A stretch of 64,000 nt of DNA from Cyanidioschyzon merolae. Taxonomy: Eukaryota. This document shows, piece after piece, positions 11,781 to 63,292 of this stretch (position 1 is its first letter; the number at the start of each line of letters is the position of its first letter). The notes under the pieces are model-generated. The model worked only from the letters and a program-made list of their open reading frames with translations, was not told the DNA's origin and made no database searches. The stretch lies in NCBI GenBank assembly GCA_000091205.1, contig AP006494.2, one strand, 5' to 3'. A program made the translations under genes and the position numbers.

Positions 11781-11860
11781 GTATCCCGTCGGCTGCGGAT
11801 CAGTTCTGGGCATTCTCGCGCATCGACTCATGTCGGATTCATATAGAACGGATCCATTAA

Positions 11861-12928
11861 CTCTGTCGCACACTCTAGCGTTTGGGCCTCGTTCCCTGGT
11901 CATGAATACCAGCACTTGCGGGTATTTTATGCAACTGCTCCCGCTTTCCTATCCCTATCTCTGACTTTAAATACGCTGGTGTCTCCTTTCCTTACAGCTT
12001 CGTTGTACGAAGACGAAGGATGTTGATCGTGAGATTGGAGCCCCAACTTCGCAGCCCCGATCTGTTGTGCAACTATGCCATGCACACCCGGGAGTTGCGA
12101 TCTACGGTTCGCATGCCACTTGCATCTCCCTAGTATACGGAAACAGTGCGCCCTTCACGGCTGCGAAACTTGAATATGGTCAGGGGTATCCCATGGTTCC
12201 CCGCTGGCCCTCCGAGCACCACTACATGGCGCGTGAACGCCCGTTTCATCGCTCGGTACATGCCCTTGACGGATGTAGGAGGATTGTATGGAAGCGTCGC
12301 TTAGCGTCTGCACCCGGTGGCCGTTCCAAGCGATCACGGGCTGCCTCTGGGTGATACGTGCTCCACTTACGTCCTCGGTGCACTGCATATGCAAACACGT
12401 GTAGTCGCATTTTTATGACGTGACTTGTGGAACGCATCGTTGTCCATCATGCAACAGGTATCGGGAGGAGAATCCAGGTTCGGGATCCAGTCCAGCACTA
12501 CCGATTCGTCTGGACTCCACTCCTGCAATGCAGAGTCAGACGCTGCACCGGCGGCGGTCGCTGTGATGACTCACGTCCGAGTCCGAGGCCACATCGACGC
12601 AAAATGAGGACTTGAGAGCGTCCGGGAGCATCGCCGCTGCGTCGAGTCATGCTGCCGCCACACGTCATTTTGTCGATGCGCGCCACGAGAAAACGACGCG
12701 TGTTTCCAAAGCAAGCGATTGGTTGGAGTGAAAGGTTCAATAAATTAGCTGAATGAGGTTGTGAGCAATTCGTCAACCGCCAATGTCGAGAATTTTTTGT
12801 CGTTCATCCAACGGAGCGAATCGCAGCGTCCTCGAGTTGCCCCGGAATACAATGATCAAAATCGTGGGGTGAACGTGATTCGAGCATGCCACAAGTAAGG
12901 GGAGAAGTCGAGTGGAGGCTCTTGTATA
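11861..12928 (+). repeat. Dispersed ~1.07-kb repeat, copy A; direct repeat of copy B (29525-30590) at about 99% identity
   Basis: Base-by-base comparison of 11861-12928 with 29525-30590 gives about 12 mismatches over ~1045 bp. The embedded 95-aa ORFs 12067..12354 and 29731..30018 differ at 2 residues. Both copies begin 'ctctgtcgcacactctagcg'. Confidence 0.9.
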
Positions 12929-13346
12929 AAAATTCTATTGTGATCTCCGTTATCTTACGAACTCTTACCCGAGAGGCGTCGCGAATCATCTCAGTTCCTG
13001 TCACCAAACGCGTCCCAGCAACACGGAGTCGGACACGACACTTCAAATCGACGACAGAGCGTCCTAAAACTCGTATAAATCAGTAAACACCAACTGGTCG
13101 CACATCGGATCATGAGAATGCACATGTAAGAGTGAGCGAAAAGAACGAAGTGCAGAAACAGAGCGCCCAGTACAATGGACAATTTTCATTTGAAATAGCT
13201 CGTCGATGAAACAAAAGTTCATGTAAGATAAATGAATTCCGGCAGGGAGATGCTTCTCAGCCTTTTCGGTAGGCCCGCTGCTATTGGTTTGCGCTTCTCC
13301 TGGTAATCATCGAGCCTGAGAGGCTGCCCTACGATGTTGGCTCGCG

Positions 13347-15412
13347 TCAGCTCTGCGGGCTCGTCTCCAGCACCGCACACCGTCTGATATTGAAGGCCGC
13401 GTCAAAGTCCCGGTTCACAAACTCAACGCGTTTCTTTCTGTTGGTGTAACACACCAATTCAATGAGTCCTCGAACTCGTGCCCTCATTGCCATTTGTTCT
13501 CCTGTCAGATCTCTGTACTCTTGTAAATCCTCCGGGCTCCGCTGGCACTTTTCCATCTAGACCTCCTGATGTGTACACCCCAGCTCATGGTGCATATAGA
13601 ACGTTCGGAAATTCATCAATGGGTATTGTGACAAAACCGTGTGCGCACTTCTTATACGTTCTTGTCGTTGGAGCTGGTGTACACCCTTTTTTCGACATCC
13701 AGCGCCCTACTCCGTATGCTACTTCGAGCCTTTGATCCTTGTCCGCCTTGAGGGCGCTAAACTCACTGAAAAATTTCGTGAATGCACCCTCTTTCCTCCG
13801 TACAGTTTCATGCGCAGACGAGTCCACCGGGGCTTTGCGTACTCTTGCCACAACTCCTCGTCATGAGCAGCTTGAGTTTCTATGAATTCTAGAAAAGCTT
13901 CAAAGTCCGCTCCTCTGCTCGCCACCTGGCTGATCACTTCCAGGTGCTCCTTCACTGCTGAACTCAACGTCTCACTTTCCATCGTCGCATTCATTACTCC
14001 CTAGTCTCTATCGTATCTCGCTCTTTCGGACTTTAAGGAAACGTACGTCTTTTGGGGTAAGCTGCCGTCGATACGATATTCCCCATGCTTGGATGCTGCG
14101 ATGGTCATGATAGTCGTGTTCCCGGGGTACGGGCCGATTACGACAAAGGCGTTCTTGTCTATCTCCTGCGTCACAGGACCCGCCTGCTTTTTTTCATCGT
14201 GCTTTGCCGAGGGCGATATCGAAAACACAACAGGACGATCCGCCTTCAACAGCCGATCGTGTACACATATGGCTGTTCCATCGGTTTCGATCATCCCAGT
14301 AAATACCTTTTTCTTGCTCGTATTGAGACGTTTGAAATCGAAGATATTCTTCCAGTCCGTCTCTCGGTTTCCGCCGGTAACTCTGTTTTCCTTACATCGA
14401 ACTCCGGACAGATCTCCTTCATGATGCTGTAAATGGCGCTGGAGTCGATGGTCACAAAATGTGACTTGATGTTGCATAACGGAACGACAGTGAAGCGCTT
14501 CTCCATTAGGAAAGATATCCGTTCCAATGAACCTGCTTTTTTCTCAAACCCAGCTGCATCCCCGCCTTGCGTTCAAGTTCTCGCTCCGAAGAAAAAAGAA
14601 ATAGCACAGGATGAGGGGATAGCATCTTTTTCCATCTTTCTTCATATCTGATGCCTTTTCTGCAGGGTTGACACGCCCCAAGATTGCACCGTGCTCTTTC
14701 ATAGCCGCACGGATTACAGAAGCTTCATTCTTGCTTCTGCGTGATATCCTCTTGTCAACTAATTCGATCTCCTATTCATGCTGGCAATCGTTCGTGATGC
14801 CATCGATGATGGCCCGTATCCATTTGCAAGAGAGGCCCGGGTAGCGTGTCAAGACGCAGCGTATCATGAAGCGTTTGAGATTCACAATCATATGGCTATT
14901 CCGGTTCGTGAGGTCCTTCATCGCCCCGTATTCGTAAATAGGCGAGTCAGCTTTGTATCGAGTGTCGTTGACGCGGTATTCGGCGTAATTTTCGCGCAGG
15001 GCATGCACTCGCTCATCTCTCCACAACAGGTCCCTTGTACCAAGCATCAGGTGGCTGAGAAAGCTCTTGTTGAAAAATTGTTTCGGATTCTCGACTGTTT
15101 TTATGTCCGTTACATCCTCTTCCAGCTCCTTCACCAAATACATTGATCCAGTAGACGCTTTCCAAGTTCAAATCGAGTAAGACGTCACATGTTTATGATC
15201 CACTCTTGCATCTTTTGCTTATAGGGATCCTTGATGTAACCTCCACGAAAAGCTTTGACCACCACCTCGTCGTATTGTCGTCTGCCGTCTAGCTTTCGAA
15301 GGCCGGCCTCCTGCCTCCGATCCTTCGTCTTCTCCTGTTCCGCTTTCCTCGGCACTGTTTTTTCGTCTCCGGCAACTGGTGACATCAGACTACCTGGATC
15401 CTCAGCTTCCAT
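13347..15412 (-). pseudogene. TnpB/Fanzor-like RuvC nuclease remnant (element 3), fragmented across frames
   Basis: ORF 13347..13556 ends in the RuvC-III signature 'LIELVCYTNRKKRVEFVNRDFDAAFNIRR' (D at 13409-13407). ORFs 13585..13851, 13719..13994, 14001..14477, 14291..14527, 14772..15143 and 15185..15412 are colinear but frame-shifted ORF pieces on the same strand, with a possible degenerate RuvC-I '[10 protein letters not shown]'. The segment is AT-richer than the flanking genes. Confidence 0.5.
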
Positions 15413-16556
15413 GTCCTTAACTTTCCTTTAATTATTTCTGAAAACGAACGCTCTTTGAATGCTTCTGCTATAAATCGCGAAAATCACTTTGATGCCCTAA
15501 TCTGAGAATGGAACACAACTGCATTGAAAAACGATACTTTGCTATGGGTGTAACGCAAATATATGTTGTACGCCAGAGCAACATACTGATAATATGGATC
15601 GGGTTTCTCTTCAACGGGGAAATGCGCTTCGTCTCTCATGCCGGCCAGGTATGAAGGTGCGAGTATATACCGCGCTTTATCGAAAAAAGAACAGAAACTG
15701 ACTACCAACTAGAAACTCGATAAAAACTTCGTTCCAGCACTGAGATACCCATTATAATTGGGAGCATTTTCTGTATTTTCGAAAGTCTTCCTTCTAGACG
15801 AGGGTCCCGCGAGTTGGACGATTCTGCCGGGCTAGTGCATCATGATCCCCAGTGGCGGATGCTGTAGTTAGACCTGGGCAGCTCATCCGAAACGCAATTC
15901 ATTCTGGGGCTATGAGCGGTTATGCCGTGTCTGGGCATCGTTCAGGTCTCAGTGGTCTCCTATCACATGGCTTTGCACCGCTGCATAGAGTACGTCTATT
16001 TGCACAAATTGGAGGCTCTCATCTTGATGATGGATCACGATTCTGTGACTAATGAACCACATCTTGAGCCGAGGCCTTCAGTGGTACAGCAATGCCGATC
16101 TGTATCCGTGCAGCACCGCAGCACCGGAATAAGCGCTATAGCGGGTGCAGGAAAGCGGGTATTCGGTGCACGATAGATCATACAAAACAACCAGTATATC
16201 CGAGAGGAACTACGGATGATAGAACCTCGAGGTGGGACGCAGCTTTATGGACGCTCCCGAATGCCAGTATCCATCCCGCACGCTGGGCTCCGTAGTCTAC
16301 GGAAACGAATCGCCAAACCAAAAATTCAGCAAAAAATCCTCAGGACAAGTCAGTACAAATTTATCAATAAAGATACTAAATGGAACCTGCCGCTGGATCG
16401 CTCCTGTCTGAAGCGCTGACGAAGCACTTGATTCGCAGCGTTGCGTAGCCTCCCCGCTGAGACGCAGTGCAGCGAAGCAGGTCCGTGGCTCCTACCTACC
16501 CGAAATAGGGTTCCTGTTCCGGTTAGGAAAGAGTGAAGGTTGGGTAAGCAGAATTC

Positions 16557-20146: not shown

Positions 20147-20911
20147 TCCATTGACAAGCCGTACTATGACGTTTTCCTGAACAAAGCCCTCGAGAGCAAA
20201 CAGGATGTTCGCCCCGATGCCGAGCGCTCGGATCTTGCTCAGGCGTTTATTTAATCTGGTATCTATGTGGCACTTCAAGACCCTGCGGATCAGTGTAGAC
20301 ACTTCTGTATTGTACGGAATGACCTGTTCAATGCGGCACGGCTACTCTCTTGAAGCAAATATAAAGCTTTCGAACAAATTCGCAAGCAGCATTGGCGGAG
20401 ACGATCCAAGTTCCTCGTTTACGAGGGGGGATTCGGAACCGAGTCTCTTTCCAGGAGGTGCGCACTCGCCAACTTGTTCAATATTCTCGAAATGGAAATG
20501 ACCGATAAGCCGCGTCGCTCTTATTGGCAGCGAATGGCGCTGCCCGTGCTGTATTCCACGAAAGCCGCACCCCGACTCTACCGACGACAGCGACAAACGT
20601 TTGCAGGAATCGATTCTGTACGATCTCTGTCGATAAGTACAGGGCGCCGGATACCTCCCATGACCGGAGCATATGACCACGCTGAAACTGGTACAGAAGC
20701 AGAGTCGAAACCGAACCGCAGTCACGAAACGGTCGACTCTCATTTGAGCTAACTCCAGGTATCGAGACAATTTGAGTTTACTGCCCTGTTAAAATGTGAT
20801 TGCGCAAGCAACCAAGCGCACAAGCATATGCTGCATCGAGACCTGAACGCCTCGATCAACATTGCGAAATGTGTCGTGCTGCAGGAGCCTCAAACGGCAC
20901 TGTGTCGATAA
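19538..20911 (+). pseudogene. TnpB/Fanzor-like RuvC nuclease (copy 1) with RuvC-I, RuvC-II and RuvC-III recognisable but interrupted
   Basis: Frame 0 (19602-20180) gives '...LQIIGSYRVALDLGTMGVVCKGRF', a RuvC-I GxDxG-like motif with D at 20091-20093. Frame 2 gives 'LFNILEMEMTD' (RuvC-II glutamate at 20489-20491) followed by 'YWQRMALPVLYSTKAA'. After an in-frame TAA at 20750-20752, frame 2 continues with 'KCDCASNQAHKHMLHRDLNASINIAK' (RuvC-III, 20834-20869), and the stop is at 20909-20911. Confidence 0.65.
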
Positions 20912-22184
20912 AACTTTCGATGGAATCTTCTCGGGCTCCTTACAGGCGTTCTGTTGAAATGGGTAAGACTTTCAATGAGAAACAAAAGTATCAGCCATTA
21001 GAGGGGCGATTCCTTGCCCGACTGTATCCGGGCACTGGTATGAACCTGGTCAGCAATCCAGCAAGGCCTGGACGCCGTCTCTCTATATTCGGGGAACGAG
21101 TTTCCCGAGCGACTGGTGAACGACAATCCGAATCCGTTCTGCCATACTACTTAGCGTGCAAGGACCGAGCGTCCACGAAACTGGTCGTCGAGTGGAACCC
21201 ATCGCTTTGAGTACATACGCTCATGGATGGCGTGCGGAAAGCACTCGTGCGCTGCCGGCCCTGTGCAGCATTCATGAGCGACGCATCGCTTCTAATGCTC
21301 TCGCCTCCACGAACCAGATTGGAAGCACTCGTGCTCTGCGGGTATCGTCTTACACCCACGAGAACCCGACCCTGACAGAATGGTGGAAGCAGCAGCGTCC
21401 ACCGCAGAACGATAAACGCACATGGTGTCGCACGAAAGACGCAAATGATCGTTTCGAACGACGTTTGTGTGCTCAGGATCGTCTTGCGAACATCTGTTGC
21501 GAAACCCTTCCCATATACCCACCCGGTTCCATATCCAGAGCATGCCTCTAAGCAGTGCAGAGCTGTAACTGCAAGCGCGCCCTACACAAACACCCGTGGT
21601 ATCTTGCAACGATCAACAGTCGCTGCCGCCTTCGGATGCTTCTTGATGGCACGAATCGAGCAGCCGAAGCGAGCTTCACTGCTCATCCGCGCTTAGTGAG
21701 GTCTCTGCATACACGTGATCCGCTAAACGTTGTTTTCATAGATGCATGTAAAGCGCGTCCACCAGGACCTGGACATGCCCCGCGCCAAAAAGTCTCCGCG
21801 GATTGCGGAGCGCTTTCTGTGAGCTCGCCAGCGACAAGCGCTTCTTGTTGCAGAGTCATGCTGTACTAGGTCTCTTTATTCGTGTGGCGTTGAGCGTGAG
21901 TACGCTTAAAACAGTACCGAACTCGCCATGAGGTTCGCTTGTACACAACGCGCTCCGGTTTCGCGTGGAAAGCTTTATCGCCGGATCTGCATCGAACGCA
22001 GCTGGGCGCCGGTAGAGGGCGCTCATCTCCATTGCCGCCAGCGTCTATGATCCATTGCACATGCAAACTGGCACGCTGTCCAGTCCAGGTAGGTTCCGAC
22101 GCTGTACGCGGCAGGCAGGCAGTTTGGACACTACGAAGGCAACGACCGTCCGAAGCGTGCATCGAAACCACGATAGGTTCGCGT

Positions 22185-28164: not shown

Positions 28165-28194
28165 CAGCAGTAGCAGCAGCAGTAGCAGCAGCAG

Positions 28195-28229
<35 letters not shown>

Positions 28230-28230
28230 G
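28165..28230. repeat. Compound microsatellite (CAGCAGCAGTAG)4(CAG)8 between LCMT1 and repeat copy B
   Basis: cagtagcagcagcagtagcagcagcagtagcagcagcagtagcagcagcagcagcagcagcagc read directly in the sequence. Confidence 0.9.
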
Positions 28231-29524
28231 CGTCCGATCGTAGACGACATGTCTAGCGATCTCAAGCCGTCCTCCGTGGTGAGGCGGAAGCAGCGATGCA
28301 GGCCTGCGCCTCGCAAAGACTCCGGTAATGACCATGCTGCACAGCATCCTGGATACCTGGTGACGCAGAGGCGGTCGCTGCTGCTCCGGGAATGCACCAT
28401 AGCGAACACGCGCACAGCCGTTCGCAGCGGCGCTGGTCGAATACAACGCCCACCTGCACGGAAATAACACGCTGGAGAAGCACCAGATGGAGTTACCAAC
28501 AGGCTGCGAATTCGCGGTATCCGTTGTCGTCGTCGCACCTGAGACGTGTTCTGCTCATTGACATGCCCGAACGGAAGCATCCGGACTCGATTTCGTTTCT
28601 CCAGTGCACACCGCAGCTGTGAGATCGTTCCCAGCAGGCCATGAAGCTCGTCAGTCTTCGCATCCGCAGCAGTGCTTTAGGCTAGCAGGTCTCAGCGCAA
28701 ACGGCGCTGCGCGTTATGCTCCACTCGACGTCGTTCTAGGCTGCGCGTTGGCGTCAACTGTCGTCGATGTCGGTGCATCGTGCGGCGTCGCGATGTCAGC
28801 CTGTGGCACCCGCCTTGCACCCGTTAGCTTCATTCGAATTCACGCGTGTCTGGGACACAGCTTTGTAGGCAGCGGCGACGAGTCCGGTGGCGCTTCGGCA
28901 CTGCCAGCAGCAAGCTGCGGTGCCGATGCCATTCCTCCCCATGGCGCCAGACGCATCGCTCGTGAGTGCGAGCTTGCACCAGACCGGGTTGGGGACTGCT
29001 TTTCCTTCTGCCTGCTGTTTTGCTCTATGCATTTTCCGCGTTATTCACTATTTCCAATTTCTGTATCTGGAAACAGTGCAGTACCTCGCGGGCATGACGG
29101 ACGCCGCAGCAGTTTTTTCTGCTCGGTGTTTCGCAGGTTCAAGACGCAAAAGCCTTCGGTTTGCTCTGGTCTGCGCCCCAGTTCAGTCTGCGTAAACCTC
29201 ATAGGCTCTGCTTTCGTTGACACCCGTTAGGGCACAAGGTAATACCTTTCAAGTTTCGGAAACTTGTTGCGCATAGCGGAACGCTTTTCCTGTCGCTGTG
29301 GCAAAGCAGTGTCAGGGATTTCGCCGAAGATCAAAACCTTACCAACCAGCTCCTGTTTCCATCGCCCGAAACAGATCCGAACCGGGATCCGGTACGAAGC
29401 ACGTTCGCAACCTGGATAAGAACGCAAGGCCTAGTTAGATGCAGTGCGAAGCCAAAAAACGTTGTTTCTGTTCGCTCCTAACGTATTCCAGCAGTCTCAG
29501 ACGATAACGGAACAGGTCTTCTAG

Positions 29525-30590
29525 CTCTGTCGCACACTCTAGCGTGCGGGCCTCGTTCCCTGGTCATGAATACCAGCACTTGCGGGTATTTTATGCAACT
29601 GCTCCCGCTTTCCTATCCCTATCTCTGACTTTAAATACGCTGGTGTCTCCTTTCCTTACAGCTTCGTTGTACGAAGACGAAGGATGTTGATCGTGAGATT
29701 GGAGCCCCAACTTCGCAGCCCCGATCTGTTGTGCAACTATGCCATGCACACCCGGGAGTTGCGATCCACGGTTCGCATGCCACTTGCATCTCCCTAGTAT
29801 ACGGAAACAGTGCGCCCTTCACGGCTGCGAAACTTGAATATGGTCAGGGGTATCCCATGGTTCCCCGCTGGCCCTCCGAGCACCACTACATGGCGCGTGA
29901 ACGCCCGTTTCATCGCTCGGTACATGCCTTTGACGGATGTAGGAGGATTGTATGGAAGCGTCGCTTAGCGTCTGCACCCGGTGGCCGTTCCAAGCGATCA
30001 CGGGCTGCCTCTGGGTGATTTGTGCTCCACTTACGTCCTCGGTGCACTGCATATGCAAACACGTGTAGTCGCATTTTTATGACGTGACTTGTGGAACGCA
30101 TCGTTGTCCATCATGCAACAGGTATCGGGAGGAGAAACCAGGTTCGGGATCCAGTCCAGCACTACCGATTCGTCTGGACTCCACTCCTGCAATGCAGAGT
30201 CAGACGCTGCACCGGCGGCGGTCGCTGTGATGACTCACGTCCGAATCCGAGGCCACATCGACGCAAAATGAGGACTTGAGAGCGTCCGGGAGCATCGCCG
30301 CTGCGTCGAGTCATGCTGCCGCCACACGTCATTTTGTCGATGCGCGCCACGAGAAAACGACGCGTGTTTCCAAAGCAAGCGATTGTTTGGAGTGAAAGGT
30401 TCAATAAATTAGCTGAATGAGGTTGTGAGCAATTGGTCAACCGCCAATGTTGAGAATTTTTTGTCGTTCATCCAACGGAGCGAATCGCAGCGTCCTCGAG
30501 TTGCCCCCGAATACAATGATCGAAATCGTGGGGTGAACGTGATTCGAGCATGCCACAAGTAAGGGAAGCTGAACTTTGGAGGTTCGCACA
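29525..30590 (+). repeat. Dispersed ~1.07-kb repeat, copy B (direct repeat of copy A)
   Basis: See copy A. It lies 17.66 kb downstream of A in the same orientation. Confidence 0.9.
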
Positions 30591-36893: not shown

Positions 36894-37535
36894 TCATCCG
36901 CACCGTTCCGGAAAGCTAGCTGAAGCACACTTTTCAGCGAGACACGCCCTGCAGGCGCTAACGTAATCTGCTGCCGGTTGGCAGCGAACGCGCTCAACGA
37001 GATCTTCAGCGAATGCATCTCGCTCTAAATGAAAACATCCCCGTCGACGCAGTTCCGTGAGCACCGCCCAGCGGTGCTGCCAAGCCGAGTTGTTCAGCGG
37101 GTCACGTTCGAGTTCGCGAACAGTGGTGCTGTTCCACTCTCGCCAGAGCAGATCTTCGTTTATAAGTTGCGGATTTCGAATCAACCACTGCCGATGACTG
37201 TACAAGTGATAGTTTTTCGCGTTTTCCGGGTCCGTGAGCAGCGCATCGAGCCGATCCAGCTCCTCTGCGCCGAGCGCTGACAGGGCTGAGGCCTCAAGCG
37301 CTTCACACTCGGTGAGACGCCTGATCAAAAGCACACGCCGGTGGTGCCAAACCTGGTAGTTCTTGGGAAACCTGCGGCACCACTGATCCGCTTTGGCCAA
37401 ATCGTCCTCGCCGAGCTCCCGTGCGATCTCCCAGGCAGTATAGTCCGCGGGGTTCAGTTGGAGGACCGGTTCCAGGCCAGCGTCAGCGATCCGATCCCGA
37501 GCGCGCTGGACACGTTCCACGCCACGTATCCTCAT
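36894..37535 (-). CDS. protein farnesyl-/geranylgeranyl-transferase type-1 alpha subunit (PPTA repeat protein), compact form
   Basis: Tandem prenyltransferase-alpha repeats: 'LNPADYTAWEIAREL...KNYQVWHHRRVLLIRRL...AKNYHLYSHRQWLI...NNSAWQHRWAVL'. Compare human FNTA 'ANYTVWHFRR...KNYQVWHHRRVLV...KNYHAWQHRQWVI...NNSVWNQRYFVI'. ATG at 37535 verified. At 213 aa it is short, so N- or C-terminal exons may be missed. Confidence 0.7.
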   Translation of the reverse strand: MRIRGVERVQRARDRIADAGLEPVLQLNPADYTAWEIARELGEDDLAKADQWCRRFPKNYQVWHHRRVLLIRRLTECEALEASALSALGAEELDRLDALLTDPENAKNYHLYSHRQWLIRNPQLINEDLLWREWNSTTVRELERDPLNNSAWQHRWAVLTELRRRGCFHLERDAFAEDLVERVRCQPAADYVSACRACLAEKCASASFPERCG

Positions 37536-38847
37536 GACAGCGCTTCTAGCGCTGCTTGATGGAAGCGTTTCAACCCAAGTGTGCGAGCCTGAAAACGAAC
37601 GAACACCGCTCTGCAGCAGATTGTCAAACTGACTATGAACCGCGGACGCTGCGGCATCGGTTTGCCTTTGTGGCCGCGCTCGCCGCCGCCAAGACTTTGT
37701 TGCAACACACGTCGTGTTACCGCTGCGACCCGCTTCGTATTCGAGCGATACTTGGCTTGGGTACGATCATCATCGACCCTGAGCTCTATGTGTTCGTGGA
37801 AATCATGGTCAGAGAAGCGAGTGTTCTGAGTTATATTGAACAGCGGAACGCGACTATCGATCCTCAGTTGCCCATGGATAGTGTTCTCGACGTATACAGA
37901 TGAAGCTCGATCCTTTCTGGGGTGCACAGCGGCACCGTGCCTGTTTCCTGCTCCAGCCGAGAATCTAATCCTCTTTTCCAGGTCAATGACTTTTTTACAT
38001 CGGGTGTCTGCAGCGTCTCACAACCAGGCGCGTACTGAGGCCGAAATGATTCCCTGCAAAGTTCATTTGACATGAATGTATTGGGGGCTCCAGAGGCACG
38101 ACATGTTGCCGGAAGTCGATTTTAGGCGGTGAATTCGAGGTGCGAAACTAGCTTTTGTGCGTTTTTGCTCATGCCATCTCAACATAGCACGTCTGTCATC
38201 TCCGATGGCTACGTCGTCTGATATTTGCTCACCCTGCCGCACACTATGCCCTGCGTTCCGATGTGTTCCGCGCATCTCTCCCGAGCCTGTACCAGCGTGA
38301 ATATAAGCCCATGAAGCGTTTGTGCTGTCCTGAGCACACTGATGGGGATCGATTCCCGCAGTTGTTGTATGCTCTCGTCGGCGGTGTACGAGTACAGCCC
38401 TTGTGCACTGCGGCGCGTCCAGCGCTATGGACTTGTACACAACGACTCGACGAATTCTGCCATATGCGTTGCGAAATCACTAAAGAACCTGGCGAATGCA
38501 TGATTCATGGGTCCGTACAACCGAAACCGGTCGCTCTCCCAGCGCTGTCTCATGTACTCAAGCAAAGAATCGTCGGCCTGAGCCATCTGGATACTCTGGT
38601 GTTCTCCCAATCGAGCGTTTACAGTACATCCAATGCTCGACACGGTACTCAGAGCGTTTAAACGAACCCTGGGGACGTCATCCCTGTTGCTCGTACGCCT
38701 CCTGGCGTCTAAAACGACCGGCGCCTGTTGGTACCGAGCCCTCGAAAAGTTCAGCAGGTTCATTCGCTTTCCCGTTTATCGGATCTGTGAAACGATAAAC
38801 GTTTCACGACCGTATCGTGCACACATACACCCATTCGCAGCCGCCTT

Positions 38848-41052
38848 TCAGCCTTTTATGAAAGAATGACTGCTATAGGCTTTCAGTTTCTCCTTGCACA
38901 CGTCGAGTCGGAGAGGCTGCAGCAAAAATTTGTATCTCGTCAGCTCTGCAGGTCTCTTCTGCGGCACCGCATATCTGCTGAAATTGATGGCGGCGTTGAC
39001 GTCCCGGTTCACGAACTCCATGCGTTTATTGCGTCTGGTAGATCTCATTAGTGCAATGGGGTCTCGGATTCGTGCCCGACCCCCATGAGCGACTACAGTC
39101 TCGTCAACTTCCCGCCGTGCAACCAGATTTTCTCGCCAATCAGCATTCTTCTCCTTCTTCTTTGACACTTGCGCTTCTTCGCTGGATGTTCGGCAAGCAG
39201 AGGTTTTTTCCTTTGCGTCGAACGCAGACACAGCGGGCTTCCGGGATCCTCTACTTGCATTTCGGTACCTATTCCCTGGATTTTTCCTTCTACATGAACG
39301 CACTCCTATATGCTCTTGATTGAGGACCTTCCCGGATGGAGGTGGACTCGATGCAGACACACGAAATCTGTCCCGGTATCAAGGTGAGTTGAATGCTTCA
39401 GCGATTCGCCCAGTGGAGCAAGCATTCGTATTCTCGACACTAGAAACTCCTTCGATGACGTTGAAACTCGCAGAGCTTACGTAGGAAACAAAAGCAGCTC
39501 TAGTCCTCGACAGATTCAGCAAAAGCTCGAACGCGAGTGGATTGGTAAAATACCGTGTTGTCTAATGGAAGTACGTCGCCAGACGTCAGGGAAAAGTCTT
39601 CTGTGATGCGACATAGTGGTTGGTGCTGGTATATGAGACTTCGGTACAGAGGAAACTGGAGCTGCCGAATGAATCCACTGCAGCTAGGAGAGCTGCTGAT
39701 GTCATCGTTCTCTTCGAATTTGATCGTACATAAAATTGGCTCTTTCACCTCGAGTATCCAGATACGCTCCGACCGTTTCATCCGAAGCAAGTCTCATCGA
39801 CTGAAGAAACAAATCGACGTCGGTCTATTTCATACCGATCGAGACGTTCCAGGAATTCTTTCGTTGCGATACGAGTAAAAGATGGCCGTGATTGAAACTG
39901 AACTCTACGTGCGATGGTGTTCCGGTTTTTTCCGGACCATAGGCACAAGCTGTAGAGAAACAGAGACCCACATGGCGTCTCCTGTTGTCGCTTTTGGTTT
40001 CCGTTAAATTAGATCAACGGGTCATTTTCAAACATTGAACGCAAGCAGTCTCTGGAACTATCGGTTACTGGCGCGGAGCGCAAATACTGCTTCTGTTCAG
40101 TGCTCCTCAACCATCTGCCTACTGTCGTGTGACTGACCTGAACGAGGGATGCAAACTTCGCAGCACTTTTCATGAAGGACTATATATATCCTACAGACGA
40201 TTTATCCACGGTCCATACGGTATACTGCATGGTGATTTCGATCTCCGGATATACACTGCTGCGGAGGAATCAAACACATTTGATTTGAAAGAATATAATG
40301 GGCCTTGATGTTCGAAACAGGGACCGAATCGAATACAAGCTTGCAGCGTCTTGGGCGATAGGATCCTCCGAGGGATTCCTTTCCGGTCTTAAAGGTACTG
40401 TCCAGCAAAGCGCAATGGCACGAGATGTTCCTAAGGCAGACCTCATGTTTGAAGCGTCCTTTGCATACGACGTCCATCGTTCCGAGATCAAGAGCAACAC
40501 AATAAGATCCGATGATCTGAAGCGACGCTCGCTCTGGCTGCAACATCTCGTCGATGCTCGCTACCTCTTTGATCTCTTTTGGCAACAGCTCGTCATTCGC
40601 GTCCGTTGTCACGCCAAGAGTTCCTTCCTCCAGAGCCCATATATCTGGGTCAGTGTGCTGCGGGTGCAACGCCCACGAGGCGAAATTCATGATGCCCTCG
40701 ACATTGAACAATATACAGTTTAGGATTTTCAGGCGTGTTTGAACCTTTTTGACACCTGTGCTGGAGACGCTTCGACCGGCAACGTCGCACTGCGGAGCGT
40801 CAAGAATTTTCCGCGAAGCGCATATGCAAATCTCTGGTCCAACGGTCAGGCCGTGCTGCATCTTCTGTCTCGAACATGAGTTGTGTTCAAGCACGAAAGT
40901 TTGATGGATAAATTCCGTAAGAATCTGGACAGCTTGCAGAGCTGCGTCCAGAGCTCCTGCGGATATTTGCTGAGCGATCTACGTCGAGGCGAGGAATGCC
41001 AGATGAGCCTCCCTCGAGTACGAAGCTGCTCGATCATTCCTAGCGTTCTGCA
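38848..41052 (-). pseudogene. TnpB/Fanzor-like RuvC nuclease (copy 2), fragmented
   Basis: ORF 40202..40894 (-) carries RuvC-I 'IIGSYCVALDLGTMDVVCKGRF' (D at about 40489-40487). ORF 39500..39790 (-) carries 'RIWILEVKEP' (candidate RuvC-II, comparable to copy 1 'FNILEMEMTD'). ORF 38848..39360 (-) ends in 'RRNKRMEFVNRDVNAAINFSRYA' (RuvC-III, about 39003-38962), which is highly similar to the element-3 C-terminus 'NRKKRVEFVNRDFDAAFNIRR'. Confidence 0.6.
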
Positions 41053-42951
41053 TATCGCCTCTTGCGAGATTCTCCCGTTGGTTTGTTTCAATCGAGAATC
41101 CTTGACAACGTTTGAAGACTGATATTCGCCCCACAGAAATTTTTCTATCCGGCCCCTCGTCGTCTTCTTTTCGCGAGGATGATTCCCTTCTTTGCTGAGC
41201 GGTACCTTCGCCTTGCCCGTTACTTTTGCGGGACGGAAAGGGTTCGGGTGCGATGCACCAGGTACGTTTTCCCAGTGACTCAGACGAACTGGATGGACGA
41301 TGGGAATCAAGTCCGCGTTTCCCATCTATGCATCTATCTACTATTCCGCGTGCATCTTTTCGTCGCCTTGCCCGACGCGCGCATGTGCATGAACCCAAAC
41401 GCACCATTCAGTGCTGTCCAACGCCCGAGCGGAGCAGCAAACAGTAGTTCTGGGCTGGTGAGGGGAGAGCGCGCGGCGTCGCAGGGAACGATTCGTCGAA
41501 TGACGTCATCAATGATTCGAACGACTCGAATGTGCGTTGTTGAGCGTAATCATGACGTTTGACAGCAGAGAAGACGCCTTCGACTCGACTGAAACGGAGA
41601 CCATAGGCTAGCATGAAGGGTAGCTCAGCTCTACTCTGAGTTACGTGCAGCATGCCCTTGTTCAGGTGATGGAAAGCGACGTTGTCGAACATTGAGACGG
41701 AGGAATCCTCTTCGGATACAATACGAAGTGTCCTTTGTCGAAGGATGATGAGCTGGTGAGTGGCCCTGTCGGGTTCCGGATTTTTGTCCGCGACCGTACG
41801 GCTGAGGTGCCGCAGGAGCCCCCACATCGAAATGCCCGCTTGACTCTTTCGTGCGAACAGCGGTTTTTCTTACCTTGAGTGCCCATACGCGGCTCTCGCA
41901 CTCGTTCCGGAGGCAGTTTCATCGAACTTGACGAGCACCCGCACCAAGTGTCATCAGCATTTGCGTTCCTCCAGGAAACCGATATTGCGTTGTGCACCGC
42001 ATACAGGTCTCGAATAGAGGCCCGATTTTTCTTCGTAAATGCGTTTCTCTTCGACATGGCTCGTACCAACGGTATGAAAAATTCACATCTGGTACATGCT
42101 TCGTATTTCTTCGACAGCGTACAGAGTGGAATGGGTGGACCACCATCCAGTCCTGTAGATAGCGTTTGAAACGTTCTGTTCAGCGTACACGATATTCTGG
42201 ATAAGAACTGGAACACTGGTGGTTTATCCGCCTGCTGACATCTGAATGACTCGACTATAGAAATAAAATCGTTTTTCGCAATCTACCTATGACAGTATAA
42301 AGTCTGTCCACGAGACCGCTCTCCGGTTCACAGCGTACGTACCTTTTGAGGCATACCTCGGGAAAATGCACGAAAACAAAACAGGGCGTATTGTTAGTTG
42401 CACCAGAATTTACGATTCTCTGTGTAAATCTTGCAGGTGTGCTCGTGTCACGGGAACTCCCCAACAAGGGAATGCTCGTTCCGAATGTCGCCCAGACTCG
42501 CTGCCAGAGCCCAAGCGTGCATGGCATGAGATTCGGAACGAATGTTGGTGTGGAGGCTCGCCGTTTTCCACGGTGGCCGCAGCTGGTGGCCAGTCTTTTT
42601 TTGGGGTGCTGCCTTTCGCACTCGCGATATACGTGTTGCGTTTCTGCACATTTTGGCGCTTAGGAACGCAAGGGCGCTCACGGAAGCGAGTTCCCGCGCA
42701 AGGGACTGGTGCCTGAACACACGGGTTGCGTCCGCGTAAATCGATGCTGACGCTCTTGCCTAACTTACAACTATATCAGAATGAAACAGAACCGGTCTAT
42801 GGACTGTGTCGCACATGCAAACCTTGCGGCCTGTTTCCATTTCCAATACCACCAGCCTGTATGAGATTGTTATACATCTGCTGCTTTTCCTGTCTCTGTT
42901 ATCTCACGCTTTGCATACTGGGGTTTAGTTTAGCTCGAGCTCCGTTGTCAG

Positions 42952-43548
42952 GTGTCGAAAGATATTGGCTGTTGCGTTCAATGCCCGATTTCCTTGCAAC
43001 CGACTGTTGTGGACATATTTGCTTCACAGGCGGAAGTTGCGATCTGGGCGTCACTCGCATTTTTACGCTGCTCTGCAGGTAGGCACGGTGCATCCCTCGC
43101 AGCGGTGACACCTGCGAGCGGTTTGATGTTCCCGTGTATCCACCACATATCCCACTGCTCCGAATGCTACTCTGTGGTGCGTGGACGCTTCCATCATCGC
43201 TCTGTGCAAGCGCTTGACGGGTACAGAAGGCTCGCGTCTACGCCCAGTTCCGTTTCTGCGCTCGATGCCGTACCCTGCGAGCACGGGCTTCTTCCAGACG
43301 ATTTCGTCGACGAGTACGCTGCCGTCCGAACACGAGGGCGCGAGCGCTTCCATTCCGTAGAGGATTTGTCGATTGTGATCGTGCGCTTGATGAATCAAGT
43401 ACCGGAAAGAAAATCCATGCTAGCGATGATGCCGCAAACGACGGATCCGTCTAAGCTAGCATCGTGCCAGTCAGTGACGCACGCTTCACAGGAAGCGATC
43501 GCTGCGATGATTCAGGTACGAGTCCATGACCTCTTCCATGCAACATGA
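42952..43548 (+). repeat. Divergent third copy (C) of the 1-kb repeat family, preserved at the protein level
   Basis: Copy C reads 'EVAIWASLAF...CYSVVRGRFHHRSVQALDGYRRLASTPSS...CEHGLLPDDFV' and copy A reads 'GVAIYGSHAT...HYMARERPFHRSVHALDGCRRIVWKRRLASAPGG.../SDHGLPLGDT'. DNA identity is about 70% with mostly synonymous codon changes (tcg/tct, gcc/gcg, gga/ggg, agg/aga). Copies A and B carry a frameshift relative to C. Confidence 0.45.
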
Positions 43549-44778
43549 AGAGTCGGAAACCGCCAGGAGCATATCCCGTCAGATATTTATCATACTGCTG
43601 TCGAATCCCGCTTGATCGATGACCACAAAGAGATGAGAATTCATATTTCGAACAGAATCTGCAATTTGAAGCAGCAAGTTCAGTGAACCTTCGGCATAAA
43701 CAAGTGAAGATACTGTCAAGCGGCGACGGCCAGTTTCTTCCTCGTCAATCGAGCCGCGTGAATTACTGTGGCAACGAGTTGCCTCGAAACCGGCGGATCG
43801 AAAAGATATACAATACGGCATTTCAGCATGCGACATGTAAGGAAAGCAAGCGACTGGAAGCTCATTGGTAAGCATTGGCTGGCGATCTCTGGAACAATAC
43901 GAACTATGTTTCGAGTGCATCGGGAATCACGTTGATTCCGATGAAGTCATGAATTCCATCGGGAAAGCGTCCTCGGATCCACCCAGAATACTCAGCAGAA
44001 CATCCTAAAACTACCAGTGAATACGTAAGCCCATACTGCTGGACTTGGAAAGCAGAGTCTGTGCAATGAAACCTACTTCCGAATAAAATCCATGAACCGA
44101 GCGAGCAGTTCAGAATTGGATCTGACTCTGGCACGGATGTAGCACGTCAGACGTATCGAAGTAGTCTTTGCCCCCGTAACCCTTTTTTGCGGCTTTTTTC
44201 CGAGTATCCGCATAAAACCTGAGGGCGTGCTGCCGGTGCTGTAGTGCGCAAGCTGTTCCAACGATAAAAGGTTTTCGGCTACGGCAACGCCGTCTACTTT
44301 CCGTGGCACCAAGCGCTCGGCACTGTCACCCAATAGGCTCCGGGTCTTCGAACGCGCACTCGCAGCGAGACGAGCGGCTTTTCCCGCCAGGTGCTTCACT
44401 ATTCTCGGTGTTATGCGGGTAATGCACTCGACGGGCCTGGTCGAAACACATCTGGGACTCTATTGATGAGGACGGTCTTGTTTCTTAGAGGCCAGGCTGT
44501 GCGAACTTGGAGTCACGCATCTCAAAGCAGGGTCCTGAACTGGTGGAATCTCCGCATGCCAACCGACGGAAATCCAACCCTAACCACGGACGCCTGTGTG
44601 CCTGAACGCACGTCCCCCGACCATACCCGCAGTTGTGCACGTCGCTTCCCGTGCTTCATCTACGCTTGACAGGGACTTGAAGGTGCGATCGTCCGGTCTG
44701 TTTTTGCAGAGCACAGTGGCTCAAATTTTTACATTTTTTGGTTTGGTTTTGGTTTTTGGTTTGTCGCTCAGCCTAGGC

Positions 44779-46194
44779 TCACGCACAGTACAAAGACTCA
44801 TCAACTGCAGGTGGGATCGGAGCGATCTTGGTCCCCAGCTCGTGTTCGATTCGGTACAGGTTCAAGCGATCGTCTTGCGTTACGAGACTGATCGCCAGAC
44901 CGCGGTGTCCGTACCGTCCAGAGCGCCCGACTCGGTGCAGGTATGTTTCTGCGTTCTTCGGGAAGTCGAAGTTCACGACCACGTTCACCGCTTGTACGTC
45001 GATGCCGCGTGTGAAGAGGTCACTCGAAACGAGGTTTCGGCAGGCGCCGTTGCGAAAGTCATGAAAAACACGAGCTCGTTGATACTGCGGCATCTTGGCG
45101 TGGATATAATAACAGGAATAGCCCAGTTCGGTTATTTTCTTGGCGAGAAGTTCCACCCGCGAAACCGAGTTGCAGAATATGATGCTTTGGTTGATTCGCA
45201 GTTTGCTGAAAAGCGTGTTCAAACAGTGAATTTTGCGACCCTCATCCACGAATGCGTAATATTGCGTGATTCCCCGCAACGTCAATTCTTCCATGAGATT
45301 CAGTTCGTAGGGTTTCCGAAGGTGTCTGTCTCGGAAGCCCTTCACGGAAATCGGAAACGTTGCTGAAAACAGCATTAACTGCCGATCGGGAGGCAGTTGC
45401 TTGGTCACGATCTGTTCGATGACGGGCGTGAACTCCGGCGAGAGCAGCTTGTCGCCCTCGTCCAAAGCACACATCTTGCACTCATTTAATTTGGCTATGC
45501 CTTTCTCGGCTAGATCCAGGACTCTACCAGGCGTGCCGATCAGAATATGTACGATTTGCTCTAGCCGCAGGATGTCATCCCGCAGGGAGGTGCCCCCGGT
45601 TGTCGTCATGACCTGCAGGCCATCGAGACGTTTGCCGAGCGCTTTCGCAACTGCAGCCGTCTGAAGGGCGAGCTCACGCGTCGGCACCAAAACAAGTGCT
45701 TGTATCGCGTTCTTTTTCGTGTCCAGTCGCTCTAGGATCGGGATAAGAAAAGCTCCTGTTTTACCAGTGCCGTTTTTGGCGCGGGCGAGTACATCGCGCC
45801 CGGCCAACGCTACCGGCACCGCCGCTTCTTGGACCGGAGAAGGCCGCTCCCAGCCCATTTCAAAAAGCCCCATCAGCAACTCTCGACGTAAATAATAGTC
45901 CTCGAAACTGTTTCCTCTCGTAGCCGTCACATCCTCCGTGCGATAACGCGTGTCCTTGGGCGGAGCCTGGAGGTTACGGCGCCAGTCCTCGACCTGCGAA
46001 GGCGCCGCTGCGGGGCCAACACCACCACCAAGTCCCACAAACTGCCGAGTTTGGGGATGCATAATGCGTTGTTCACCGGGCGGGACGACCCCAACGGGAG
46101 CAGCCGCCCCGCTCGGTAGTTGCTGGGACCCCGCGCGCGTCTCAGGTCCTCTGAGTTGCTCAACTACCCAGCCTGGTGCTGCCGTACGCTGCAT
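44779..46194 (-). CDS. DHH1: DEAD-box RNA helicase DDX6/Dhh1/Me31B family (mRNA decapping and translational repression)
   Basis: '[64 protein letters not shown]...VPTRELALQ...[17 protein letters not shown]...[13 protein letters not shown]...LFSATFP...[99 protein letters not shown]' is colinear with DDX6. The track start at 46245 is TTG; the ATG is at 46194-46192 (verified), with an in-frame stop upstream at 46287-46285. Confidence 0.9.
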
Positions 46195-48530
46195 GAATCG
46201 TGACTGTAAATAGTTTGTGAAACGTGCTGGCGTATCTTTTCCCAAAACTAAGACAAAAGAACGAGGCAGTAGTCCTCTATGAAGCTAGCTTTCTCAGAGG
46301 CAACTGTCCGTAAAAATGCCAAAGCGTTTCACAGAATAGCTGGACTTTGGCGAAGGCTGCGACGCGAGTGCCGGCCATTCGCCTGGTACTGCCCTGGTGC
46401 GTATGCCGGAGGAACCGGTCTCCTTGACCGCAACTTTGAAACTGGGGTACGTGTGACCAAGACAGAGTGTTTCCGGCTAGAGTCGCGTTTATAAACGAAT
46501 GATTGCGTCCGTTGGAGCGTTTTAGTGCGTGTAGCTTCCCAAATCTGCTTGAAAGTACTAGGGCTCGGTTGCAGGTCACGTGGCGCAGAGCACCGGAAAC
46601 TTCAAATGTTCACGTCCAGCACACAGAGATCATTGATTTTGCAAGGCGTGACGCAAGATACGCAGCGTTCAGGGTTTGGAATGAAAACTGACGAAGTTTT
46701 ATACGGGTGTTTAAGAACGGTGAAAGCGTCGAAACAGGCGCGAGTTCGGAGCACGAGACTGCCTGGAACTTGAAGCGCTTCCTTCACTCGACGTGGGAGG
46801 AGGACTGCGGGGTCTCTGTGCAGAGACCTTTTCTCGTTTTACCTGTATTGGTAGTCTTTGAGCTACTGCGCTTTTAATGCGAGCGCGTTTTTGCCTTGAT
46901 GCAATGGGAGCAACGTAGTGCGGCTCTGGAGGAGCCTTCTGTTATCGTGTCCGAAACGATCGTTTTTTAACACACACATATCTACATGGAACGTGTTTCC
47001 GGATTGTTGCATTTCCTACCCTAGTAACAGAAATCATCGGACCTTTCTGCAGAGGCCTTTTCTCATCTTCTTTGTACGAGTGCTTGATCACTGAACACCT
47101 ATCCAGTTTGAGCGCGATACCCGATTGGCGTAAAGTTCCGGAACCTGTTACCACTTCCGAGCAAAAATAAATGCAGGGGTTCGCGGCTCACGCGCTCTCT
47201 TTAGGGTTCCGCTACGCAACTGCCATGCTTGCGACTAGACTTTATTGGACGGTACTTCGGCTTCAAGTACCGGGGCAACGCTTGCAAATTCGAGCTGCAC
47301 GGAGGCAAAACTCCTATGGTTGCGATGAAACTTTATTCGATGAAACGTCGGCATCGAGTGCCAGGATGCTGTCTGCATCCTCAAGTTGCTGGCACACATT
47401 TTGCACGTTCGAATATGAAACCCCGAGGTACGAACCAAACTAGGCGCCGACGCGAGGAGTTCTCAACGGAAAGAGCGGGCTGGGGTACTGCTCAAGTCTA
47501 TATTGTGCAGTAGCTGCTGTGCCACGATTACCATGAGCAATACCACAACCGTGGCTGGCACTGGGAAGGATGCAAACTCGGAACGCCTGCCCGGCACTCG
47601 GTGGGCGCCTATCGCGGCCTCGCACTCTAGCCGATGTAGGAACAATAGAGTCACCAGTTCGTTCCGGGCGTCCTCGAGAGCGCATCGCAACATGCTAGCC
47701 ACATGAGATTTGTGGGGAAGATGCGACATTCCGGGTGAGCCTGGCTGTGCAAGCGCGCTTTTACTCGCCTGGAACGAAGCGCGATGCTTGCCCTGCCAAG
47801 TAAACCCTTGGTGTATTTCCGGACCACCTTAGCCACGAATACTACGTCATGTGGATTTTGCGTTTCAGGCTGGGTATCTCTCGGGCTCGCAACAAGCGAC
47901 CCAAACGCAGTCAGTCTGCCGAATTCTCTGCTCACCGGCTCATGAGCGGAAACCGCACGTCCTTTTGGATTATGAGGAATCGACGCTCGCTGCTGCAGCG
48001 AGCCTGAAGCATCCATATTTCCGTATCTTCAAAATAAAGTTCGCCGCTTGTTTTTTTCTACGACAAGCGGAACCGGAATCGATGGGTGCTTAGGTCCCAG
48101 CGTCGCAGCACATCAGCAGCAGCACCGAACGCTCTGTGATCGTCCACGTCCATAATATGTTCCCAAGTTGGATGCTATTCGGCCCGTACATTGTGCCGGA
48201 TTCCATCATGATCCATCAACGCTGTATGTAACCAAAGCGTGCACCACAATTCCTGTTCGAGCGCTAGTTCGTACCAGATAGTCTAGACTGGTCGACCTGC
48301 TCCGAGCTCGATCCACAAACACGCCGTCTGCGACACCCCTTGCAAATAGCGCACCCAGATGGAGCAGCTTCGCGATACCCCGTCAAAGCGCCAACTCCAC
48401 CGCCATCACGAATGAAAACGCATCCACGCCCGCCTGCAAGTTCTAATCTTCGAAACTGTTGAACATTAATGCATGTTCTGAAAGACGCTGTGTGAGTTCG
48501 CTGTAGCAGTGAGATGTTTATATCGCTCAC

Positions 48531-48730
48531 CAGAACGTTTCCTGTGATCATGCATCCCAGAATGTACCATGAAGACTGGCATTCGGCAGAGCGTCCATCA
48601 TGTTGTACCCTACCTACAAGGTTCCATGACTCCGACATGCTCCCCGAAATACCAAGAGACTGCCGCTTGCGCTCAGCAGAACGTTTCCTGTGATCATGCA
48701 CCCCAGAATGTACCACGAATACTGGCATTC
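48531..48730. repeat. Two copies of a ~64-bp direct repeat (48531-48594 and 48667-48730), 220-420 bp upstream of the VPS13 start
   Basis: 'cagaacgtttcctgtgatcatgcaTcccagaatgtaccaTgaaGactggcattc' against 'cagaacgtttcctgtgatcatgcaCcccagaatgtaccaCgaaTactggcattc'. Confidence 0.85.
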
Positions 48731-48950
48731 GTGAACACTGAGCTGCATTGTCGCGCTTCCGCCAACGGTCGATGCGTACGAACGATACTGACGCGCGCAG
48801 CGCCGCCTCGGCGATGCCAACGATGCGCGCTGTTCTGGGCGGCGCGCGCCACCGGCGATCGCCACTCGTAACCAGATACGGCATACACGAACGCGACGAT
48901 TGAGGTGTGTTGGCTCAGAGGTGAGGCATACCACCGGGTTATAACGTTTG

Positions 48951-62628: not shown

Positions 62629-62674
<46 letters not shown>

Positions 62675-63241: not shown

Positions 63242-63292
<51 letters not shown>

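Follow-up and report, generated by a model that had tools for sequence, protein, structure and literature searches.

A probable composite of Fanzor1 and Mariner-type transposase relics in a Cyanidioschyzon-like red alga

The Fanzor1 proteins of Spizellomyces, Parasitella and Guillardia are intact omega-RNA-guided RuvC nucleases. Prokaryotic TnpB (IS200/IS605, IS607) forms the distant parent superfamily of Fanzor (PMC3627910). In PUl-1 and PUl-2 of Pythium ultimum, which are Mariner-type elements, a transposase gene is followed by Fanzor1 on the same strand (PMC3627910). CMe-1A, a Fanzor1 element of Cyanidioschyzon merolae, is 3169 bp long, encodes a 734-aa ORF and is present in about 150 copies (Bao & Jurka 2013, PMC3627910). 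The locus considered here, copy 2, lies on the minus strand of a 64,000-nucleotide window which also holds two related loci, copy 1 at 19.5-21.1 kb and element 3. A first-pass annotation of the window, working from conserved motifs, had read copy 2 as a single TnpB/Fanzor-like locus at 38848-41052, with RuvC-I, RuvC-II and RuvC-III residing in three different ORFs. Comparison with the described systems leads to a different picture. Copy 2 reflects the ordinary decay of transposons from known families; what is new, in a minor way, is a second Fanzor1 lineage, together with patches which resemble gene conversion.

The family assignment was made by profile comparison. Element 3 reads in nearly one frame over about 620 codons, and as a query it recovered 16 metagenomic proteins (up to E 3e-139); a subsequent profile search yielded 724 relatives. 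Profile A3, an alignment of 65 full-length relatives, has a consensus which carries the hallmarks of Fanzor1: FTGTIxTDGVS, GxDPGR, RWAxQRLRLYGGKK, AYGxAKF, VDEFRTT and FVNRDxNAAxNI. A3 matches the Fanzor1 chains of Parasitella (9cf0, E 4.9e-20), Spizellomyces (8gkh, E 1.5e-12) and Guillardia (9cer, E 3.2e-5) in the PDB. Within copy 2 it matches three pieces, referred to below as M (iE 1.5e-14), C (iE 2.3e-10) and N (iE 1.3e-4). Since A3 recognises both the solved Fanzor1 proteins and copy 2, the suspected relatedness to TnpB/Fanzor is correct and can be narrowed to Fanzor1, so that copy 2 belongs to the same protein family as the three structurally characterised proteins. Its connection to prokaryotic TnpB runs only via Fanzor1. 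The TnpB domain models OrfB_IS605 and OrfB_Zn_ribbon gave no direct Pfam match to the ORFs of copy 2, and Pfam assigned no family at E <= 1 to any of these ORFs individually. NCBIfam likewise gave no match for P0001, an intact relative. An earlier profile, A1, which lacked the C-terminal columns, did not match the PDB Fanzors, and a structure of P0001 predicted from the shallow A1 alignment reached a pLDDT of 35.

Copy 2 is situated in an island of 6.5 kb, flanked by a prenyltransferase gene (36894-37535) and a DHH1-like helicase gene (44779-46245). The island had been described as AT-richer than its surroundings; the difference exists but is modest, with a GC content of 0.49-0.54 inside versus about 0.54-0.56 in the flanks. 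The eukaryotic window has few introns, and the neighbouring genes are long uninterrupted single ORFs. Those in the window include RIC1, a poly(A)-polymerase-like gene, an AAA ATPase, Rpn3, Not3, two DEAD-box helicases and a prenyltransferase alpha subunit. All three peptides singled out as RuvC motifs are present on the minus strand: IIGSYCVALDLG at 40481-40516, RIWILEVKEP at 39737-39766 and RRNKRMEFVNRDVNAAINF at 38980-39036. Copy 2 is also broken over several frames, as had been reported; its longest ORFs encode 230 and 170 aa, and an uninterrupted Fanzor1 ORF of about 600-800 aa is absent. The locus was mapped in six frames with profile A3 and 165 family proteins. The span originally proposed omits two Fanzor pieces, at 38835-38236 and 38231-37911, and the fact that the Fanzor pieces stand out of gene order had been overlooked.

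The piece N (41218-40271, minus strand) is the N-terminal half of a Fanzor1 pseudogene. It corresponds to residues 16-330 of P0023, its closest intact relative, and to profile positions 42-276, and it occupies a single frame with one in-frame stop. A convincing match requires reading through the in-frame stop or using P0023 as the query (tblastn E 3e-14 over 330 aa); scored ORF by ORF the match is weak (E 0.19). The peptide IIGSYCVALDLG, previously labelled RuvC-I, aligns with 'IVNAHRAALGL' of P0023 (residues about 247-257) at profile positions about 214-235. It is thus not RuvC-I. It represents the N-domain motif 'RxILGL', and the true RuvC-I, GxDPGR, comes only some 150 profile positions further downstream.

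Downstream of N, from 40271 to about 39138, neither the profile nor the 165 family proteins detected any Fanzor signal in six frames. The roughly 1.1 kb between N and the RuvC-III box is a predicted Mariner/Tc1-type transposase pseudogene. This piece, X (40170-39380, minus strand), appears to be a nearly full-length, decayed transposase of the DDE_3 type with about five in-frame stops, and its reading frame had the look of an HTH joined to a DDE domain. It was resolved only through comparison with the transposase adjoining P0023 (L025:541-1446; BLASTP 79.7 bits, E 5e-22, 30% over 270 aa), itself a true DDE_3 protein (Pfam E 2.3e-23). Pfam and NCBIfam searches with the stitched X frame returned only a weak IS630 HTH match (E 0.043) and no DDE_3 match, and a word-indexed homologue search with X returned nothing. 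Against the PUl-1 and PUl-2 transposases X scores z 6.1-6.3, in only one of the six frames. The first D of the DDE triad is kept ('VDET'), while later acidic residues are not recognisable. RIWILEVKEP, the candidate RuvC-II of the first-pass annotation, is an off-frame reading of X, and neither the profile nor the 165 family proteins link it to Fanzor. X was also considered as a heavily transition-mutated (RIP-like) copy of other DNA in the window; a search with purine/pyrimidine-collapsed 26-mers revealed no hidden homology, and this idea was rejected.

A second transposase relic, T (42114-41411, minus strand), sits about 150-190 bp upstream of N. It is probably a decayed transposase of the Mariner/Tc1-IS630 type (DDE_3), of which only the C-terminal two thirds are recognisable. 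T matches the L025 transposase (BLASTP E 9e-11, 34% over 86 aa), its top Pfam match is DDE_3 at E 0.069, below the curated cut-off, and it scores z 3.5-5.2 against the PUl-1 and PUl-2 transposases in one frame only. The ORF at 41408-41827, which belongs to T, carries the JGI label 'transposase'. Mutual similarity between T and X is not detectable over their overlapping part (z 1.0), a dissimilarity which was also counted against the insertion model described below. Two further candidates were discarded: no relationship was found between transposases and the 5' non-coding region of CMe-1A, and a transposase relic upstream of copy 1 was unsupported.

The arrangement of these relics is familiar. 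P0023 is encoded on a metagenomic contig of 3.7 kb, L025, 158 bp downstream of a 302-aa DDE_3 gene and on the same strand. T followed by N shares the layout of this element and of PUl-1 and PUl-2, and the distance from T to N is in keeping with the 158 bp between the two genes of the P0023 element. A DDE_3-type relic adjoins Fanzor1 on the same strand twice at copy 2, with T before N and X before C and M. Unlike PUl-1, PUl-2 and the P0023 element, however, both genes are dead in copy 2 and its Fanzor1 is interrupted and rearranged. Terminal repeats of 24-33 bp and TA duplications were not recognised at copy 2. Terminal inverted repeats and target-site duplications were found neither for the T-N-M-C' series of pieces nor for X and C, which counts against the model set out below.

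The piece C (39077-38837, minus strand) is a CMe-1A fragment of about 240 bp, which holds the RuvC-III box EFVNRDVNAAINF and the end of the ORF. The CMe-1A consensus was taken from the supplement of PMC3627910; blastn gives 75.8% identity over 157 bp, and the local alignment covers consensus nt 2842-3084. At the protein level C represents profile positions 549-600, with similarity reaching to about 39138. The resemblance of this C-terminal box to that of element 3, pointed out in the first-pass annotation, is real and amounts to 72% nucleotide identity over 208 bp (38870-39077 vs 13278-13483). Element 3 is itself a near full-length CMe-1A copy (16307-13317, 78.4% over 3 kb by blastn). These matches make the host C. 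merolae-like; exact-protein look-ups returned no record for two housekeeping ORFs and only metagenome records for the PPTA ORF. Only 240 bp of the 3169 bp of CMe-1A are present at copy 2, and nothing of its 3' end past nt 3084 remains. These C-terminal relationships are stated as pairwise identities rather than as a tree, because about 45 decayed residues cannot carry one.

Directly downstream of C, and in the same frame, lies M (38835-38236, minus strand), yet M represents the part of the protein which precedes C. It covers the region from RuvC-I to RuvC-II of a Fanzor1 pseudogene (profile positions about 360-545) and matches P0068 (tblastn E 9e-15) and P0073 (E 2e-18). M follows C on the coding strand but comes earlier in the protein, and the pieces are therefore out of order. 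At the RuvC-I position of M (about 38806-38820) 'ARYGRETF' is found where the family has 'xDPGRxNI', and at the RuvC-II position (about 38323-38352) 'IPISVLRTA' where the family has 'VDEFRTT'. The genuine, if degenerate, RuvC-I and RuvC-II positions thus lie downstream of the RuvC-III box. Nucleotide identity of M is 58% to copy 1 and 58% to element 3, compared with 71% to element 3 for C.

M is followed by C' (38231-37911, minus strand), the decayed C-terminus of the gene to which N and M belong. C' is collinear with the C-terminal region of copy 1 at 20745-21067 (local DNA alignment 58% over 325 nt, z 17.3), and the two stop at the identical codon. 'HRDLNAS' of copy 1 corresponds to 'APRIHRL' in C', where the 'RD' of RuvC-III has become 'RI' (about 38132-38137). 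Copy 1 as a whole aligns in order with N (z 346), M (z 13) and the sequence after M (z 11), while X does not align with it (z 1).

More than one Fanzor1 lineage is accordingly represented in the window, as had been proposed from the motifs. The RuvC-III box of copy 2 and element 3 belong to the CMe-1A family. Copy 1 is of an older lineage, and so are the N half, the middle and the second C-terminus of copy 2; N, M and C' have no DNA-level match to CMe-1A, and their protein identity to CMe-1p is only 24-29%. The RuvC-III box is not part of the gene which owns N. The description of copy 2 as chimeric is borne out insofar as it is a composite of two Fanzor1 lineages; it fails insofar as it envisaged one gene with RuvC-I, RuvC-II and RuvC-III in the three named ORFs. 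In addition to the CMe-1 family already described, the Cyanidioschyzon-like red alga thus contains remnants of another Fanzor1 lineage, one which is linked to a Mariner-type transposase.

Several lines of evidence bear on whether copy 2 is a dead gene or one split by introns, a choice which had been left open. Conserved blocks are broken by stops and by changes of frame, and every part of the locus shows stops, frameshifts or lost catalytic residues. The RuvC-I D, the RuvC-II E and the RuvC-III D of the backbone are all replaced, and neither zinc-finger cysteines nor CxxC pairs are recognisable at copy 2. Bao & Jurka (2013) defined the motif D-X(125,275)-[TS][TS]-X-X-[C4 zinc finger]-X(5,50)-RD, and copy 2 does not contain it in one collinear frame; the sole intact 'RD' is in C, the CMe-1A scrap, upstream of the RuvC-I and RuvC-II remnants. 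Since the motif is incomplete and out of order and the catalytic residues are replaced, copy 2 is a relic of the family and not a functional Fanzor1. Divergence between two strains is 1.0% in the island, 0.57% in adjacent genic DNA and 0 in the prenyltransferase ORF. The stops within conserved blocks, the replaced catalytic residues, the intronless neighbours and this faster divergence between strains together indicate pseudogenisation and not introns. Unlike the characterised Fanzor1 nucleases, copy 2 is without catalytic residues, reading frame or an identifiable guide RNA region, and Rfam gave no matches at the locus. Judged from its sequence, no part of copy 2 is predicted to be able to act as an RNA-guided nuclease. 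The consequences for nuclease biology are small; nothing at the locus would be expected to cut DNA.

The layout of copy 2 is real and, as it appears, fixed. A 17-kb contig from another sample, L015, is the sole contig which spans the whole island; it is collinear with 47534-30445 at 99.4%. Partial contigs agree with the same layout.

Taken together, the pieces suggest that copy 2 is probably a non-functional composite of minus-strand transposon relics, in which a backbone of T, N, M and C' is interrupted by X and C. This probability applies to the dead-relic composite as a whole, insertion into a single copy being favoured only moderately over tandem units. The identity, order, frame and decay of the pieces can be read from the locus directly, while the order of events, in which a single copy took up an insert and no tandem pair existed, is what we infer. 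The backbone would be one old Mariner-type element, with a transposase followed by Fanzor1, and a paralogue of copy 1 at 19.5-21.1 kb. A single backbone is proposed because N, M and C' are non-overlapping, complementary and collinear with copy 1. Its Fanzor1 frame would have been broken between N and M by a foreign relic of about 1.4 kb, consisting of X and, directly after it, the 240-bp CMe-1A scrap with the only well-preserved RuvC-III box. About 80 backbone codons, including 'FTGTIxTDGVS', would have been lost at the junction, with RuvC-I surviving only as a degenerate trace at the start of M.

The strongest competitor, possible although rather less probable, supposes two elements arranged head to tail, each with a transposase followed by Fanzor1. 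The first would comprise T and N, truncated after residue about 330, and the second X and M-C', lacking the first 430 or so codons and with the CMe-1A scrap at the deletion joint. Such units, with two deletions, would yield the identical order of pieces, and each Fanzor stretch does have its own transposase relic before it in the same orientation. The unit structure would be that of the P0023 element and of PUl-1 and PUl-2, and the 158-bp spacer would again be matched by the T-N spacing. However, the exact complementarity of N and M-C' would then be a coincidence, whereas the two relate to copy 1 as one collinear gene, and T and X lack mutual similarity where they overlap.

A distinct question is raised by part of N. 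The 5' part of copy 2 had been grouped with copy 1, and the grouping holds: 40433-41046 is 98.4% identical to 20147-19534 over 614 bp, by blastn and by alignment. The edges of this tract are sharp. Its downstream flank is only about 60% identical between the copies (z 5.9), both flanks being Fanzor-homologous and in frame, and its upstream edge falls at the point where copy 1 loses its Fanzor homology. The window contains a second such pair, 11858-12904 and 29522-30568, which are 98.6% identical with a flank at 60%. In the metagenome collection the tract occurs in only two flank contexts. The 10 sites at which it differs are polymorphic in both contexts elsewhere, and no differences between the paralogues are fixed across samples, a pattern compatible with repeated ectopic conversion. 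Directional decay, suggested by the 10 differences, at every one of which copy 1 has G/C and copy 2 has A/T, was dropped as an interpretation, the sites being polymorphic in both paralogues elsewhere.

The tract looks like a patch of ectopic (non-allelic) gene conversion between paralogues which are otherwise roughly 60% identical, conversion being the mechanism we infer from the step in identity. Homologous conversion between flanks of about 60% identity is mechanistically awkward. Many contigs break inside the tract, and short-read assemblers may mix paralogous tracts and so produce part of the shared polymorphism. Where relics carry sharp, near-identical patches of this kind, short-read assemblies break, and the patches may be signs of ectopic gene conversion.

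A bolder proposal, which we regard as doubtful, is that repeated ectopic gene conversion maintains local identity among long-dead dispersed relics of this extremophile alga, with two independent patches of 614 bp (98.4%) and 1047 bp (98.6%) in the 64 kb and with alleles apparently shared between paralogues across environmental samples, or that the 614-bp tract has been retained for an acquired function. If recurrent conversion does take place, the relics would be recombination partners and could drive rearrangements.

It is very unlikely that gene conversion was not involved and that the tract is instead a conserved functional element, such as an RNA or a domesticated domain, or an artefact of assembly. 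In favour of this are the very sharp edges of a 98.4% tract within roughly 60% paralogues and the frequency with which short-read metagenome contigs break inside it. Both copies, however, carry the same in-frame stop, and the tract has no Rfam match. Its divergence between strains, 5/614, is no lower than that of the rest of the island, and the tract is therefore under no special constraint. Independent assemblies from several samples show it in both contexts, and the second pair in the window has the same pattern.

Finally, the model of the first-pass annotation is hardly tenable. It placed RuvC-I near 40.49 kb, RuvC-II near 39.75 kb and RuvC-III near 39.0 kb in a single broken TnpB/Fanzor gene, which might contain introns and which joined a core like that of copy 1 to a C-terminus like that of element 3. 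In its favour, the peptides exist, and the grouping of the 5' part with copy 1 and of the RuvC-III box with element 3 is borne out. Against it, the supposed RuvC-I is an N-domain motif at profile positions 214-235 rather than GxDPGR, and the supposed RuvC-II lies off-frame in a transposase pseudogene and has no Fanzor match. What is left of the true RuvC-I and RuvC-II follows RuvC-III on the coding strand, stops fall inside conserved blocks, and neighbouring genes are long uninterrupted ORFs. Motif spotting alone thus mislabelled two of the three RuvC motifs. Two smaller features complete the description of the region. The repeat copy listed as copy C in the first-pass annotation is present at about 42.76-44.06 kb, and a 5' fragment of CMe-1A lies at 48531-48630.

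The repeats A, B and C of the window form a single family, which is a relic of a Mariner/DDE_3 transposase. All three lie on the minus strand, repeats A and B at 11858-12904 and 29522-30568 and the divergent repeat C at about 42764-44063. The family gives a z of 6.3 with PUl-1, a Mariner-type Fanzor1 element of Pythium ultimum, and a BLASTP E of 1e-4 with the DDE_3 transposase that precedes a Fanzor1 relative on metagenome contig L025; the peptide MMDNDAFHKS is also present. Repeats A and B are 98.6% identical across 1047 bp, with right flanks just 60% identical, and this near-identity is a second conversion-like patch in the window.

The metagenome contig L019 (JGI Ga0207433_10015628) matches the window at 37951-29522 and at 12901-9504, and links what lies to the left of repeat A with what lies to the right of repeat B via the 1-kb A/B repeat. 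Either the contig is an assembly chimaera, or such a recombinant haplotype really exists. At the copy 2 locus, the composite Fanzor1 locus under study, most of the short-read metagenome contigs (L016-L024) stop within the 614-bp tract shared with copy 1 or at its edge, at positions equivalent to 40309-40959. Such ends are expected, since the tract is a two-copy near-identical repeat.

In copy 1, a Fanzor1 relic, and in C', the decayed C-terminal piece of copy 2, the conserved RPxxLxRE/KxF tail is interrupted by a stop at one and the same codon, which is TAA in the former (20869-20880) and TGA in the latter (about 38060-38075). This coincidence of position suggests that the duplication of the two was later than their inactivation.

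Element 3 (13317-16307, minus strand) is a copy, close to full length, of CMe-1A, the Fanzor1 element published from C. merolae, and matches nt 12-3012 of the consensus with 78.4% identity. It has several stops and frameshifts and is thus a pseudogene, and its RuvC-I motif reads YPG in place of DPG. A further piece of CMe-1A, 100 bp from its 5' terminus, lies on the plus strand at 48531-48630 and is 77% identical to nt 7-104 of the consensus. It overlaps the first member of a 62-bp direct repeat pair (48524-48585 and 48670-48731), the two members of which are 93.5% identical.

The Fanzor1 relatives P0001-P0016 and P0023 carry the precomputed Pfam label PF26935 (DUF8286, 'weak'), and hmmscan of these proteins against a Pfam copy without the PF26935 model matched no family. 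Their clade therefore seems to be listed only as a DUF.

Similar trinucleotide-repeat tracts occur at distant sites of the window (4801-4859, 28165-28232, 62632-62673 and 63242-63291), and a poly-Thr-coding run lies near 11.7 kb.
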